Part shown: positions 32,830-39,499 of the stretch, one piece after another
Position numbering within the stretch: position 1 is the stretch's first letter
Layout of the letters: the number at the start of each line of letters is the position of its first letter
NCBI GenBank assembly: GCA_963697285.1
Contig: CAVONI010000012.1
Location: 248,616 to 312,615 of the forward strand
Direction of reading: 5' to 3'
DNA from: an uncultured Acidobacteriota bacterium
Lineage (GTDB): Bacteria; Acidobacteriota; Vicinamibacteria; Vicinamibacterales; JAFNAJ01
Length of the DNA: 64,000 nt
Made by a program: the position numbers and the translations under genes
Notes under the pieces: model-generated
Database searches by the model: none
Seen by the model: the letters and a program-made list of their open reading frames with translations, nothing else
What the model was told of the DNA's origin: nothing

Positions 32830-35406
32830 CTAGCCGTCCGAGCGGAGCACGGCGAGGGGCTTGCGCCGGAGGACGTCGAGGCTCGAGACCACGCCGAGCA
32901 TGCCCACGAGCACGACCGCCGCCGCGATGCCCCCGGCCACCAGGCCCGGCAACGGCGACCACGGCACGTCGAGTATCTGGCGACAGACGAACCACGACAG
33001 GCCGATCGAGGCGGTCGCCCCGACGGCCCCCGCGAGGGCTCCCAACGTCGCGTACTCGGCAGCGAGCGTCGAGGCCACGGTCATCGTCGTGGCGCCCAGC
33101 GTCTTGAACACGGCCGACTCGTGCAGCCGCTGGAACTTGGTCATCGCGATCGAGCCCACCAGGATCAGGAGACCCGAGAACACCGCGACGCCACCGACAA
33201 TCGAGATGGCCAACGTGATGTTGCGGGCGATCGCCTCGACCCGCTGCGCGACATCGCGCACGTCGATCGCCGACACGTTGGGGAACGCCGCCACGATGTC
33301 GCGCTGCAGCCTGGCGCGCGCCGGCGCGTCGGGCGGGCCCTTGGTGATGGCGATGTAGGTCTGCGGTGCCTTCTCGAGCGCCCCTGGCGCGAACACGAAC
33401 ATGAAGCCGCCCGTGCGCGCATCACTCCACTCGACGCGCCGCACGCTCGAGACGCGCGCGTCGATGCTGCGCCCGAGCACGTCGAACCGGACCGTGTCGC
33501 CCACGTCGATCCTGAACCGCTTGTGGATGCTCTCCTCGATCGACACCTCGGGCTGACCCGTCGGCGCCGTCGGAAAGGCGCCGCGAATCACGGTCTCGTT
33601 GGCCTGGAGGCCATCGCGATACGTGACCACGTATTCGCGCGCGAGCGAGCCCTGCCCCCTGACCTCCTCGAGTCCCTCGAGCTTGACGCGCTGGCCTTGC
33701 ACGTTGGTGACGCGCGCGCGCAGCGTGGGCACGAGCTGCGCGGTGTAGGACGGCGATGCGGTCGCGAGCAGGCGCCGAACGCCCGCCTCCTGGTCTGGCT
33801 GGATGTCGATGAGGAACAGGTCGGGGCCGTCGCTGCGCAGGTCGAGCCTGAAGGCCCTGAGCAGGTTGGTCTCGAGCGCCTGGACGCCGAGGATGAAGAA
33901 CGCGCCGAGGCCGACCGCCAGCAGGATGGTGCGTGTCTGGTTGCCCGGCCGCCCGATGCTGATCACCGCATGGCGCAGCGGGAACCATCGTGCCCGCCGG
34001 AGTGGCCGCACGGCCCACACGAGCGCCGCCCCCGACGCCTGCAGGATGAGGGTCAGGGCGAAGAACGCCAGGCACACCACCAGCCCCACGCGCCACGACG
34101 CGGCTTGCCAGCTGGCAACGGCGACGAGGCCGGCCACCAGGGCGACGGTGCTGACGACTTGCGCGGTATCGAGCCCCTGCCGCCAGCGCCGGACCCGCGC
34201 CGAGATCGGCAGCCGCGTGCCGCCGGCCCCGTCAGCGTCGTGGTCGCGCAGCAGGGCGAGCGGCTTGACCCGGCGCACGTCGAGCAGCGGCACCAGCGAG
34301 AACAACAACGACACGAGCAGGCCGACGGCGATCCCCTGCAGGCTTGCCGACCACGTCAGCGACGGCGCCGCACCACCAAGCCCCTCGAGCGCGGCGGTAG
34401 GGATGGCGTGGATGCCCCCCCACGCCAGCGCCACGCCCGCCAGGCATCCGGCCAGGCCGAGCAGCGTGACCTGCACGACGTACACCGCCAGGACCTGCGC
34501 GGTGCTCGCGCCGAGGCACTTGAGGATGGCGATGGCGCGCGTCTTCTGCTGCACGAACACGCGCGTGACACTCCACACGCCGATCCCGCCCAGCACCACG
34601 ATCACGAAGCCGACGAGGCTCAGGTAGTCTTCGGCGCGCTGGAGGTCGTCGCTCAGGTTGTCGTCGGCGGTGCGGTACGTCCTGACCGAGACGAACGCGT
34701 TCGCGAACTGCTGCCGCAGCGATGCGGCCGTCGCGTCGAGGTCGGCAGCGGGCACGTTCGCCAGGCGCACGTAGCGCGCGCGGCTGCCGATCCTCAGCAG
34801 CCCTGTCGCAGGCAGCGTCGCGTGATCGATCAGGACACGCGGTCCGACGCTGAAGAACCCGAGGCGCCGGCCGGGTTCGCTGAGGACGACGCCGCGAATC
34901 ACGAACGTCGCGTCGCCGATCTTCACGGCGTCGCCGACGGCCACGTCGAGTTGCGTCAGCACCTCGGGCCGTACGAGCACGCCCTGGTCCTTGAGCAGGT
35001 CGTGCGAGAAGGGCTTCCCGCCATCGAGTTCGACCTGCCCGAACAGCGGCCACCCCTCGGCGACGGCCTGGAGTTCCACCATGCGCGCGACGGCCTTGCT
35101 GTCGTCGGCGGGCCGGATCAGGGTCGTGGTCTCAACGAACCGCGTCTCGGCGGTGGCGCCGGCGCGGCGTAGCGACTCGTCGATCACCGTGGTGATCTCG
35201 GGCGTCCAGGGCCGGCTCGACTGGAGCAGCAGGTCGGCCGCCGTCAGCGACCGGGCCTCGCGCGAGATGGCGCCACGGGCGTCCTGGATGATCGACCGCA
35301 GGGCGACGATGGCGCCGACGCCGACCGCCACGCAGACGAAGAAGAAGATCAGTCGGACCCACGAGGCCCGCAGTTCGCGCGCCGTCATCTTCAGCACGAA
35401 TCGCAT
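32830..35406 (-). CDS. FtsX-like ABC permease (YbbP type)
   Basis: MRFVLKMTARELR start, two FtsX repeats, AILKCLGA and FKTLGA, FLIDIQPDQ. Confidence 0.9.
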   Translation of the reverse strand: MRFVLKMTARELRASWVRLIFFFVCVAVGVGAIVALRSIIQDARGAISREARSLTAADLLLQSSRPWTPEITTVIDESLRRAGATAETRFVETTTLIRPADDSKAVARMVELQAVAEGWPLFGQVELDGGKPFSHDLLKDQGVLVRPEVLTQLDVAVGDAVKIGDATFVIRGVVLSEPGRRLGFFSVGPRVLIDHATLPATGLLRIGSRARYVRLANVPAADLDATAASLRQQFANAFVSVRTYRTADDNLSDDLQRAEDYLSLVGFVIVVLGGIGVWSVTRVFVQQKTRAIAILKCLGASTAQVLAVYVVQVTLLGLAGCLAGVALAWGGIHAIPTAALEGLGGAAPSLTWSASLQGIAVGLLVSLLFSLVPLLDVRRVKPLALLRDHDADGAGGTRLPISARVRRWRQGLDTAQVVSTVALVAGLVAVASWQAASWRVGLVVCLAFFALTLILQASGAALVWAVRPLRRARWFPLRHAVISIGRPGNQTRTILLAVGLGAFFILGVQALETNLLRAFRLDLRSDGPDLFLIDIQPDQEAGVRRLLATASPSYTAQLVPTLRARVTNVQGQRVKLEGLEEVRGQGSLAREYVVTYRDGLQANETVIRGAFPTAPTGQPEVSIEESIHKRFRIDVGDTVRFDVLGRSIDARVSSVRRVEWSDARTGGFMFVFAPGALEKAPQTYIAITKGPPDAPARARLQRDIVAAFPNVSAIDVRDVAQRVEAIARNITLAISIVGGVAVFSGLLILVGSIAMTKFQRLHESAVFKTLGATTMTVASTLAAEYATLGALAGAVGATASIGLSWFVCRQILDVPWSPLPGLVAGGIAAAVVLVGMLGVVSSLDVLRRKPLAVLRSDG

Positions 35407-35416
35407 CGATGGCCTC

Positions 35417-36135
<719 letters not shown>

Positions 36136-36139
<4 letters not shown>

Positions 36140-36912
36140 CGTGTCTCGTGCGCATCGTGCAGGAGCGGACGCAATGCACCCCAGACGAGTTCCGCGACGC
36201 GCCGCGCGCCCTCGACCGATGGATGGATGCCGTCAGGTTGATTCAGGTCCGGGTGACCGGCGACCCCGTCGAGCAGGAACGGCAGGAAGGCGACCTGCTT
36301 CTCGCGCGCCACCGACCGGTAGACGTCGCGGAACTCGCGCGTGTACTGCGCACCGAAGTTCGGCGGCGCTTCCATCCCGCACAGCAGCACCTCGATCTTC
36401 CGCGCTCGTGCCTCGTCGATGATCGCGACGAGGTTGGCGCGGAGTTCCGAGGGTGCGAGCCCGCGCAGCCCGTCGTTGCCGCCCAGGGCCACCACGAGCA
36501 CGTGGACGTCGCCGTCGAGCGCCCAATCGAGGCGCCGGCGCCCGCCGGCGCTCGTATCGCCAGACACGCCCATGTTGACGACGTCGTACTCCAGCCCCGC
36601 CGCGTCGATACGCTGTTGGACGACATCGGGGAACGCGACGCCTGGGTCGAGACCGTAGCCCGCCGTGAGGCTGTCGCCGAGAAAGACGACCCGTGGACGC
36701 GCGGGTCGCGGCACCTCGCCGGTCTGCCCGCCAGGCACGCCAGGCGATGCGTGTGCCGTGTCGGATGCCGGACCTGACGCCGAGGCTGCCCCGGGCTCAC
36801 GCGACTCTCCGCAGGCGCCCGCAAGGCCGAGCATTCCGGCCACGACCACCAGGGCGGCGCGACGACCCACACGAACGGGCACGACAAGGGACGGGAACCG
36901 ACGCAACGTCAC
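36136..36912 (-). CDS. tesA: SGNH arylesterase / acyl-CoA thioesterase I (TesA-like), probable lipoprotein
   Basis: FLGDSLTAG, GVSGDTS, LGGNDGLRG, DGIHP; lipobox-like LAGAC. Confidence 0.9.
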
Positions 36913-36962: not shown

Positions 36963-38078
36963 TCATGGCCGGATCCGATACCGCACGATCTCCGGCCCCA
37001 CGGCCACATAGAAGGCACCTGGATCCGCGGCCACTGTCCACAGGGTCGACGCGAACGACGCGGGCCGCTCGGCATGGACGAGCTGTCCGGCCGGGTTGTA
37101 AATCAGCAGCACGTGCGCGTCGCGGAACCGGTTGTAGCAGAGAAAGACCTCGTGTCCCGACGGAAGCCGCACCGCGCGCGTGTAACGCGTCTCCGCGGCG
37201 TGCGGCGATTCCCGCGTGTCGATGACCCGGCCCGTCAGGTCACGTATCCGCAACGAACCGTCGCGGTGTGACACCAGCCTGGGCCCGGTGCCCCAATTCA
37301 CCACGCTGCTCCGGGCGGGAGCGGCCTCGTGCCAGGCCCGGATTCGTTCTCCGTGTTGATCGACGATGCGCAGCCAGGCGCCTCGGGTCGGATCCAGGAA
37401 GGAATACACCAGCAACTCGACCCCGGGCGCGGGCGTCGCCTGCACGGCGTCGAGATCGGTGACGAACTCGTCGAACACGATCGCCCGCACCCTGGCGCCA
37501 CCACGCCGCCACAGTTGCACCGCTTTGCCCGACGCCACGGCGATCTCGACGACGCCATCCCCGTCGATGTCGGCAAACACCGGCGCAGACCCTCCGCGGA
37601 GTTCGATCCGCCCGAGTTCACGTCCGCGGCGGTCGAACTCGATCAACCGGTCGATGTTCCCTTCTTCCGCGACCAGCGTGACCGGCCCCGATGCTTCGTA
37701 GCGAACCGGATGTGTACGGCGGTAGCGCTTCTCGAGATCGGTCACCGCCACCTGGCGCCAGGCGCTGTCGAACCAGTGGGCGGCGTGAGGCGTTGTCGCG
37801 ACCCACTCGCCGGGTCGATCGCCCGGCACGACGTCTTCGATGCCGAGGTAGCCGTCCTTTCGCTCGGCGAGGGTGGGAGTCGCCGCGCCGACGACCGTGA
37901 TTTCTAGTGCCATCGACGAGCGGAGCACGGTGCGCGCAGCCCCCGCGACGAGGCCACGCGCCGGCGATGGGGACACCGACGGCGTGCGTGTCGACTGCGC
38001 GTGTGCGGTCTGCATGACTGCCGCGGTCACCAGGCACCAGGCGAGCGTGGGGATCGTGAATCGTGTCGAGGCAGTCAT
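36963..38078 (-). CDS. Secreted hypothetical beta-rich protein with FG-GAP-like motif
   Basis: Signal peptide ending AHA-Q; FADIDGDGVVEIAV; GGAG 6 nt before ATG 38078. Confidence 0.75.
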   Translation of the reverse strand: MTASTRFTIPTLAWCLVTAAVMQTAHAQSTRTPSVSPSPARGLVAGAARTVLRSSMALEITVVGAATPTLAERKDGYLGIEDVVPGDRPGEWVATTPHAAHWFDSAWRQVAVTDLEKRYRRTHPVRYEASGPVTLVAEEGNIDRLIEFDRRGRELGRIELRGGSAPVFADIDGDGVVEIAVASGKAVQLWRRGGARVRAIVFDEFVTDLDAVQATPAPGVELLVYSFLDPTRGAWLRIVDQHGERIRAWHEAAPARSSVVNWGTGPRLVSHRDGSLRIRDLTGRVIDTRESPHAAETRYTRAVRLPSGHEVFLCYNRFRDAHVLLIYNPAGQLVHAERPASFASTLWTVAADPGAFYVAVGPEIVRYRIRP

Positions 38079-38147: not shown

Positions 38148-39371
38148 CTATTGTGCGTTGCCACACTGCGAGCACTCGGGCGGACACCAGTCGCCCATGC
38201 AACGCGTGCACACGCTGCCGTCGCTGCACGAGCCACCACCACCCCCGCCCCCGCCGTCGCCACCACCGTCAGAACCACCACCACCGCCCCCGCCGAAGGC
38301 TGTCGAGATGAAACACCCGACGACTTGCAGGTTGCACATCGAACAGTCAGAGCGCTCCCAGAACGCCAGCCACGACCACGCCGTGCAGCAGTTCGACTGG
38401 TCGGCTTCGAAGCACCGATCGTGGCTGTCGCAACACTCCCGGAACGCCGTGCCGTCGAGCCAGTGCATGCCGGTGCACCCGTCCGACGCGCCATCGCAAC
38501 TACCGCCCGCCGAGGCCCGGTGCACCGACAGGCCTGCCGCCCACCGTGAGGCCGCTGGCCGCAGCATCTTGTCGGCCGACTTCGTCAGGCTCTCGCGCAG
38601 GAACAGCGTCGCCTGCACATTCGCCCACGCCATCGAGGGGTTGAACGTGAACCCGCCCGGCACCCTCGACTCCATGATGACGCCCTCGGCCCCGTCGGGG
38701 AACTTCCAGGTCACGACGCGGGCCCTCGCGAACCAGCGCACGAACCCGATCTCGCGCCCCGTCGAGACGCTGAGCAGCCGCGCCGTGAACGTCGAGTACG
38801 ACACGTTCTCGTGCGTGCGTCCGTGACGGTCGCGCTCGGCGATCACGACCATTCCCGGGAACTCCGTCGCCACCGCCTCGATCCCCTCATCGGGATCGGG
38901 CGTTTCGCCCTGGCGGCGCCGCACGGCGAGGTCGGCGTCACCGAAGCTCCCCTCGTGCCACACCAGCGGCCCGCGGGGGCGTCCGCGCGCGTGCCGAGCG
39001 CGATCTTCGCGCCACAGGCGACGCAGCTGCCCATGGTGCCAGTCGGCGCCAAGCGACCGGTCGGGGCCGACGGCGAGCGCGACGCGATCGTTGCCGAGGC
39101 GGACCTCGACGATCCGCCCCGACTCCGCCGTGCGCTCGTTCCGCTCTGCCTCGGCGACGACCGCATTGGTCCGCTTGTCGAAGAGCCGTGCGACGAGCTG
39201 CCCGTCAGCCTGTCGCTCGCTCACGGCGTAGCTGTCGTCGAACCACGTGACGACGCGGGTCGCCTGCCGCTCGGCCTCGTGGAACGTCGTCCCCATGTCA
39301 ACGGTCTGGGCAGCGACGGGCGTGACGCTGACGAGACACACGCCCAGCACCCACAACATCCTGTAACGCAT
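38148..39371 (-). CDS. Secreted protein with C-terminal Cys-rich PLA2-like domain and 6-Cys tail
   Basis: GGAGGTG RBS; signal peptide; CCDSHDRCF and CNLQVVGCF motifs; 16 Cys in the last ~120 aa. Confidence 0.8.
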   Translation of the reverse strand: MRYRMLWVLGVCLVSVTPVAAQTVDMGTTFHEAERQATRVVTWFDDSYAVSERQADGQLVARLFDKRTNAVVAEAERNERTAESGRIVEVRLGNDRVALAVGPDRSLGADWHHGQLRRLWREDRARHARGRPRGPLVWHEGSFGDADLAVRRRQGETPDPDEGIEAVATEFPGMVVIAERDRHGRTHENVSYSTFTARLLSVSTGREIGFVRWFARARVVTWKFPDGAEGVIMESRVPGGFTFNPSMAWANVQATLFLRESLTKSADKMLRPAASRWAAGLSVHRASAGGSCDGASDGCTGMHWLDGTAFRECCDSHDRCFEADQSNCCTAWSWLAFWERSDCSMCNLQVVGCFISTAFGGGGGGGSDGGGDGGGGGGGGSCSDGSVCTRCMGDWCPPECSQCGNAQ

Positions 39372-39482: not shown

Positions 39483-39499
39483 AGCAAGGCTCGGGCCAG
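39483..39499 (-). promoter_or_regulatory. Sigma54 (-24/-12) promoter candidate for the 39371 operon
   Basis: Minus strand CTGGCCCGAGCCTTGCT = TGGC..N5..TTGCW with exact GG-N10-GC spacing, about 110 nt upstream of the ATG. Confidence 0.7.

Follow-up and report, generated by a model that had tools for sequence, protein, structure and literature searches.

Does the cysteine-rich end of a gene from an uncultured Acidobacteriota bacterium represent a secreted phospholipase A2 (sPLA2) of the animal type, and, if so, what would such a domain do in a bacterium? The gene lies on the reverse strand, at 38148–39371 of the 64,000-nucleotide stretch analysed here (the window; GenBank assembly GCA_963697285.1, contig CAVONI010000012.1, positions 248,616 to 312,615), and encodes 407 residues plus a stop codon. 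A first reading of the sequence (the original prediction) had proposed a PLA2-like module at the end of an orphan secreted protein. Many-disulfide sPLA2s with the motif CCxxHDxCY are considered to belong to eukaryotes, as enzymes and as constituents of venoms, and the known PLA2-fold toxins of bacteria are of the Streptomyces type. The most fitting description of the core of the window protein is that of a new, minimal polymorphic-toxin domain of sPLA2-like type, accompanied by one of three families of candidate immunity proteins; in the part of the literature covered by the search, no bacterial CCxxHDxC PLA2-like toxin was found described.

The core comprises residues 290–360 (38292–38504, reverse strand) and reads GC-x13-CCDSHDRCF, followed by a further cysteine and then by CSMCNLQVVGCF. 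Counting confirms that the last 120 residues or so hold 16 cysteines, as originally reported: ten fall in a 76-residue core and six in a tail beyond it, and the 270 residues of the mature N-terminal part contain none. Two motifs carry the likeness to sPLA2. When the window is translated in all six frames, the pattern CC[^P]xH[^LGY]xC, which we take to be the PROSITE-style PA2_HIS signature, turns up once, against 0.05 occurrences predicted by mononucleotide shuffles. The pattern CxxC[DN]x5C[FY] also occurs once, with approximately none expected from shuffles, and the two segments concerned, CCDSHDRCF and CSMCNLQVVGCF, are 30 residues apart in the same open reading frame (ORF). Both contain cysteines separated by seven positions (313 to 320 and 346 to 353), a spacing equal to that of residues 44/51 and 98/105 in sPLA2. 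In the consensus of 20 PLA2G1B orthologues, CCQTHDxCY ... CNCDRxAAICF, the segment CDRxAAICF has the same spacing as that from N to CF in the bacterial family; the claim that both motif spacings agree with sPLA2 is borne out by this consensus.

The residues in question are also those that the family retains. A glycine, eight cysteines, the histidine and aspartate of the HD pair, and the asparagine are invariant in alignments of 16, 57 and 68 sequences. The 57-sequence alignment has a longer list of invariant elements (GC, the H-L-D of HWLDG, CC, HD, C, C, W, C, CN and CF), which shrinks to the shorter one when divergent members are added to reach 68 sequences. The homologue comparison called for in the original prediction thus finds the HD pair, the eight core cysteines and the asparagine fully conserved. 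In the region corresponding to the Ca2+ loop the sequence is GC[DT]G[LM]HWLDG or a variant of it, with only the G-C invariant. The histidine of HWLDG was considered as a second catalytic histidine, but its lack of invariance across the wider family led to its rejection.

Among 146 cluster representatives, 125 carry CCxxHDxC; the residue that follows is tyrosine in 106, phenylalanine in 16 and histidine in one, giving the consensus CCDxHDxCY. At the second motif all 117 representatives that carry it have asparagine, and none has aspartate. The asparagine at the position of Asp99 is therefore a family trait, and the phenylalanine of the window protein is a minority state. Both residues had been read correctly in the window, the phenylalanine at the Tyr52 position and the asparagine at the Asp99 position, but the latter is not a local change from aspartate to asparagine. 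Nor does it argue against catalysis, which in the original prediction might be lowered or altered by it, since among plant sPLA2s there are active enzymes with Asn, Ser or His at this position (PMC6635587).

Searches beyond these motifs returned signals that are individually weak and that agree on sPLA2 and on no other family. When 16 and then 57 domains were scanned singly, the only Pfam families matched by more than one member were PF06951 (group XII sPLA2) and PF00068. Matches to PF06951 are centred on GC ... CCxxHDRCYE and reach expectation values (E) of 0.037 in the 16-member set and 0.043 in the 57-member set, where 4 of the 57 members match, all below threshold. PF00068 matches the core at the tip of an RHS protein (locus L075, described below) with E = 0.037 and 15.0 bits. 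A 68-sequence profile compared with 177,635 PDB sequences found a single match, the PLA2 3v9m (E = 1.1), in an alignment that spans CCxxHDxCYE and pairs aCNlevvlCF with ACDAAAAKCF. For profile–profile comparison the reference was a set of 20 pancreatic PLA2G1B orthologues, retrieved with a sequence of the human digestive enzyme that matches a database entry at 98%. Against this reference hhalign gave the family a probability of 69% (P = 4.3e-5), with the asparagine paired with Asp99; the value was 84% when RHS-borne copies were added and 85% (P = 6.4e-6) for the RHS and myxobacterial subgroup. The default alignment in the last case extends over 64 columns and pairs the family GC with the GC of the Ca2+ loop, CCxxHDxCY with itself, and C-N-x5-C-F with C98-D99-x5-C105-F106. 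Reversed-profile controls gave 0.4–0.7%. Values of 69–85% are suggestive and lie below the level usually accepted as proof of homology. A hidden Markov model of pancreatic PLA2 searched against 6,589 ORFs from the homologue loci and the window ranked 42 toxin-domain ORFs first, the best being a Polyangiaceae protein (E = 1.9e-4) whose alignment runs from the N-terminal helix of PLA2 through the active site.

Several results weigh against a relationship with sPLA2. Neither the full protein nor its C-terminal 130 residues have a significant match in Pfam or NCBIfam, the window domain itself has no Pfam match of any kind, and no family member attains a curated PLA2 threshold, the best score being 15.0 bits against the 32.1 required for PF00068. 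The family lacks the canonical Ca2+ loop YGCYCGxGG and an evident N-terminal PLA2 helix, it has asparagine for Asp99, and a large share of the similarity score comes from one nine-residue motif. The core is predicted with low confidence in the full-length AlphaFold2 model and with moderate confidence from the 57-sequence domain alignment (predicted local distance difference test score, pLDDT, 70; predicted template-modelling score, pTM, 0.56). Foldseek comparison of this core model with PDB and BFVD found nothing, so that the fold check proposed with the original prediction gave no PLA2 match. A full-length profile search of PDB was likewise empty, and a phmmer search of PDB with the C-terminus returned only artefacts of the glycine linker (single-chain antibody, scFv, linkers), which were rejected. 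No match to PF09056, the Streptomyces type, was seen at E up to 10 among approximately 80 domains scanned, and the N of the YxN motif is missing. The core cannot be assigned to PF00068, PF06951 or PF09056.

These negative results are what would be expected if the likeness were convergent, that is, if the core were an unrelated disulfide-rich or metal-binding toxin fold in which H, D and N form another active site (for example that of a metallo-hydrolase or a cell-wall enzyme) and CCxxHDxC were a coincidence. All PLA2 matches fall under family thresholds, the Foldseek search is empty and the hhalign probabilities stay below 90%. Such an explanation has to contend, however, with two separate motifs that agree with sPLA2 in spacing, order and predicted helical placement. 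The core model contains exactly two helices, at its residues 26–38 (RECCDSHDRCFEA) and 56–75 (SDCSMCNLQVVGCFISTAFG), each with one motif, and this predicted arrangement is the one expected for helices 2 and 3 of sPLA2. The eight invariant cysteines may moreover be mapped one-to-one on the sPLA2 disulfides 29–45, 44–105, 51–98 and 84–96. PLA2 is the sole family to emerge from three independent types of search, with reversed controls below 1%. Convergence therefore appears unlikely, and the core is probably a true homologue of the sPLA2 superfamily, as judged from sequence and profile comparisons. The PLA2 relationship proposed at the outset stands in so far as every weak remote signal points to sPLA2, and falls short in that no Pfam PLA2 threshold is reached.

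Comparison with the described sPLA2 groups indicates where the core resembles them and where it departs. Like the enzymes of groups I, II, V and X (PF00068, for example PLA2G1B), it is small, secreted and disulfide-rich, has the motifs CC-x2-HD-x-C-Y and C-[D/N]-x5-C-F, which are predicted to lie on separate helices, with cysteines seven apart in each, and carries a GC ahead of the active-site helix, at a distance of x13 rather than the x14 of sPLA2. In contrast to these enzymes, which have about 120 residues, the core has about 70, with no beta-wing as well as no clear N-terminal helix or YGCYCGxGG loop. Asparagine invariably replaces Asp99, and the first cysteine of the second motif is set as C-x2-C instead of C-x-C. 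The core is, furthermore, fused behind a 263-residue bacterial domain or behind RHS repeats and paired with an immunity-like gene. Group XII sPLA2s (PF06951) give the best Pfam E-values for single members, 0.037–0.043, but are animal proteins of about 190 residues, and the matches to them are all below the cut-off. The plant sPLA2s of group XI are, by description, similarly small and cysteine-rich, with Asn, Ser or His as the Asp99 equivalent in active enzymes; unlike the core, they keep the Ca2+-binding loop (PMC6635587).

What would a domain of this kind do in a bacterium? Its location in other proteins suggests an answer. The core, of about 70 residues, forms the extreme C-terminus of RHS/YD-repeat proteins, following the ...NNP.n..DP.G[LF] sequence that ends the RHS shell. 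At least six such carriers are confirmed by Pfam (RHS_repeat, E = 1e-55 to 1e-111): L075, a Verrucomicrobiota protein of 1,825 residues; L077, from Vicinamibacterales; and L083, L085, L097 and L100, which with others are metagenome loci. The core begins about 5–40 residues past DP.G[LF/T] and ends 40–80 residues past the motif. It is at this site, after the shell, that RHS proteins have their variable toxin cassette (PMC3482391). In its position, and in the small gene that follows at once downstream, the core resembles the RHS/YD-repeat toxins, whereas its carrier in the window is not an RHS protein but one that has a Sec signal and a beta-rich domain in duplicate. A toxin role for the core, as originally proposed, is strongly supported by its C-terminal placement on RHS proteins together with the conserved partner genes downstream. 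In one RHS carrier, L075 (781–6258, forward strand), the N-terminal third contains TPR repeats and a Peptidase_C39-like segment (E = 1.7e-6), an unusual combination.

A PLA2-fold toxin domain is already known at the C-termini of RHS and filamentous polymorphic toxins, namely Tox-PLA2 (PF09056; PMC3482391). Tox-PLA2 is the Streptomyces type (PDB 1kp4), with the motifs DxC[ST] and CxxHxxxYxN, and the paper's table gives no immunity family for it (PMC3482391); the Streptomyces-type family has only two disulfides (PMC6635587). The present family differs from Tox-PLA2 in having three candidate immunity families and no PF09056 match.

In the window the partner is a gene of 371 codons at 36963–38078 on the same strand, which starts 69 nucleotides past the stop codon of the toxin gene and encodes an FG-GAP-like protein, a candidate immunity protein, with a signal peptide ending in QTAHA before Q. 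This partner has no Pfam match of its own. The close relatives L081 and L082 (77% and 66% identity) also have it after the toxin gene, one of them in a different upstream context. BLASTP relates it to the ORF that directly follows the RHS toxin of L075 (E = 5e-7, 22% identity over 261 residues, extending to the last residue), and this ORF matches FG-GAP_3 (E = 2e-7). A tblastn search of the 80 homologue loci with the window partner found none, but a profile search later recovered the family: the FG-GAP-like profile matches genes directly downstream of toxin homologues in L002–L004, L023, L024 and L033, from three phyla.

In 68 of the 79 genome loci that have room for it, the gene immediately downstream on the same strand belongs to one of three families unrelated to each other. 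A small protein with four transmembrane (TM) segments (TM1) accounts for 43, a second small membrane protein (TM2) for 16, and the FG-GAP-like family for nine, plus the window. Among 80 metagenome loci, six of which lack room, a partner is present in 46 of the remaining 74 (36 TM1, 7 TM2, 3 FG-GAP-like). The families accompany the core on RHS carriers as well, with TM1-type genes following the RHS toxins of L083 and L100 and an FG-GAP-like gene that of L075. Partner type is clustered on the tree of toxin domains, requiring 8 changes against 34.8 with shuffled labels, and the TM2 loci form a single clade (support 100); part of this clustering is expected from plain vertical descent. Partners that follow the core across carriers and are located in the periplasm or membrane would fit cognate immunity to a toxin that acts on the envelope, judging by synteny. 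The immunity-like genes favour bacterial rivals as the target. After the RHS toxin of L077, a 157-residue ORF (L077:2560–3033, forward strand) has a lipobox-like start (…LCASAAC) and is possibly a fourth immunity type. None of the three recognised partner families lies downstream of the Thermoanaerobaculia/Multivoradales-type copies L007, L017, L020 and L025.

Might the pair serve the cell's own envelope instead? Directly downstream of the pair, at 32830–36912 on the reverse strand, are genes for a TesA-like GDSL lipase, an ABC ATPase and an FtsX/MacB-type permease, in an order that is kept in L081 and L082. The segment resembles the tesA / ybbA-ybbP neighbourhood of E. coli; in the window, however, all of it lies on one strand. 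A housekeeping enzyme of periplasmic lipid remodelling, with a regulatory or anchoring partner, would suit such surroundings. These neighbours are, however, conserved in none of the 80 more distant loci (tblastn), the core recurs as the C-terminal cassette of RHS toxins, and the exchange of three unrelated kinds of partner in step with toxin clades follows the pattern of polymorphic toxin–immunity systems. A housekeeping function is accordingly highly improbable.

The alternative that we favour, with some reserve, is that the locus is a two-gene toxin–immunity module whose toxin is an sPLA2-like phospholipase. We infer the fold, disulfide map, Ca2+ dependence, lipase activity, immunity and route of release as follows. 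The first gene would produce a Sec-exported protein whose last structured 70 residues or so form a disulfide-locked two-helix domain related to secreted PLA2. On the first helix, CC-D-x-H-D-x-C-[Y/F], His317 (codon 38421–38423) may serve as general base and Asp318 (38418–38420) as a Ca2+ ligand. On the second, C-x2-C-N-x5-C-F, Asn347 (38331–38333; all three codons on the reverse strand) would take the place of Asp99 and form a hydrogen bond with the histidine. The seven-residue spacing of cysteines would permit both inter-helix disulfides of sPLA2, 44–105 and 51–98, and the remaining two invariant pairs could mimic 29–45 and 84–96. Once folded in an oxidising compartment, the core would attack the phospholipids in a competitor's membranes by hydrolysis of their sn-2 ester, and the secreted FG-GAP-like protein encoded 69 nucleotides downstream would protect the producer. 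Elsewhere in the family, immunity may instead come from a small four-TM membrane protein, of which there are two unrelated kinds that differ by clade, and the core would also serve as a cassette on the tips of RHS toxins. The duplicated N-terminal domain of the window protein possibly functions in receptor binding or delivery, or as a prodomain.

Within this scheme, an actual phospholipase A2 activity is a less secure element than homology to sPLA2, and seems fairly plausible. A genuine relative of the sPLA2 fold might lack esterase activity and, in the manner of catalytically inactive PLA2-like proteins, bind or disrupt membranes non-catalytically; or its substrate might be a different lipid, with lipid A, the acyl chains of lipoproteins and lipid II-linked groups as examples. 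The missing Ca2+ loop consensus and the constant asparagine would suit such a function, as would the preponderance of integral membrane proteins among the immunity candidates, which fits a toxin acting within the bilayer. The immunity proteins of known phospholipase effectors are periplasmic, and membrane-embedded ones are untypical, a further point that weighs against a phospholipase. On the other hand, the H and D of the HD pair are invariant in all alignments, which argues for selection on catalysis, and plant enzymes can be active with asparagine at the Asp99 position (PMC6635587). A non-esterase role thus seems quite improbable.

If the phospholipase reading is confirmed, sPLA2 chemistry would be placed within bacterial toxin–immunity warfare, in hundreds of Acidobacteriota cluster representatives and in RHS carriers of other phyla. 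The core, at about 70 residues, would be the smallest known with sPLA2-like catalysis. The partners would supply two new families of small membrane proteins and one FG-GAP-like family as immunity candidates, and hence three families of candidate protein inhibitors of an sPLA2-like core. Many "hypothetical proteins" in soil metagenome-assembled genomes (MAGs) would gain an annotation, and the origin of eukaryotic sPLA2s would become testable. It is conceivable, though doubtful, that the family is the bacterial sister group or source of the eukaryotic CCxxHDxCY sPLA2s: a minimal two-helix core would first have been a polymorphic-toxin cassette with its own immunity proteins, and the animal, venom and plant enzymes would have arisen from it by horizontal transfer and elaboration. 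Were this true, nature would have supplied, in the three immunity families, protein inhibitors directed at the active site of sPLA2.

The description of the protein as an orphan does not hold. A word-based search yields 16 homologues of the toxin at 26–100% identity, and an exhaustive profile search yields 493 cluster representatives at E up to 1e-3, of which 127 reach E up to 1e-30. Their source annotation says nothing beyond "hypothetical protein"; this is a large undescribed toxin family defined by its cysteine-rich module. In one-genome-per-species contigs its members are found mostly in Acidobacteriota (Vicinamibacterales, Luteitalea and Thermoanaerobaculia), with a few in Planctomycetota, Verrucomicrobiota and Polyangiales, including Sorangium cellulosum. 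Two copies may occupy distant sites in one genome, as do L007 and L020 on the same 5.2-Mb contig and L063 and L067 in the same MAG.

The boundaries of the toxin gene differ from those first assigned. The listed ORF begins farther upstream, at GTG 39410, and had been taken to encode 420 residues; a GGAGG sequence lies seven nucleotides before ATG 39371, and a database copy (P0002; 407 residues, 100% identical) begins at the position of that ATG. The true start is ATG 39371, because the GGAGG is well spaced from it and P0002 begins there, and the gene accordingly extends over 38148–39371. Its first 22 residues (39306–39371, reverse strand) read as a Sec signal peptide, MRYRMLWVLGVCLVSVTPVAAQ, with a basic n-region, a hydrophobic core and a VAA/AAQ cleavage-type end, as seen from the sequence alone; homologues align with ...AQ immediately ahead of the conserved start of the mature protein.

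The N-terminal domain that follows (38517–39305, reverse strand; about 263 residues) is cysteine-free and, in the AlphaFold2 model, beta-rich. It is predicted to be a tandem duplication of a unit of six strands and one long helix (pLDDT approximately 90 for residues 23–270), and its two halves match each other (hhalign 93.7%, P = 1.9e-7). Each unit closes with a W...Q helix, DW..GQL in one and AWANVQA in the other. Foldseek comparison of the full model found no real PDB match for this domain, with OspA, LolA and polo-box all at template-modelling scores below 0.3. Candidate fusions of the domain to other toxin tips, sought as a test of a delivery module, proved to be frameshifted or truncated gene calls rather than true architectures.

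Beyond the core, a glycine-rich linker, GGGGGGGSDGGGDGGGGGGGG (38229–38291, reverse strand, from the translation), varies in length among homologues. After its poly-glycine run comes the six-cysteine C-terminal tail, SCSDGSVCTRCMGDWCPPECSQCGNAQ, of 26 residues (38151–38228, reverse strand). The tail motif C.R..G.WCP.EC..C is kept in part of the family and missing from members that end right after CF; it is conserved in clades with FG-GAP-like or TM2 partners and absent from the TM1 clade. Three homologues (P0065, P0086 and P0090) continue for an additional 170–200 residues past the cysteine-rich core, an extension that the window protein does not have, with repeated D-x-[DN]-x-DG-x-[IV] motifs of Ca2+-binding-like type (…LDRNGNGRIDDG… and …DRNNDGVVNDG…).

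The G+C content is even across the region, at 0.68–0.72, with no compositional mark of recent transfer. Upstream of the toxin gene, approximately 110 nucleotides before the start codon, TGGCCCGAGCCTTGC (39484–39498, reverse strand) resembles a sigma-54 -24/-12 element with one mismatch. Near-matches of this quality are not enriched in the 70% G+C window, where 55 were found and 66.6 expected, and the putative element is only a positional lead.

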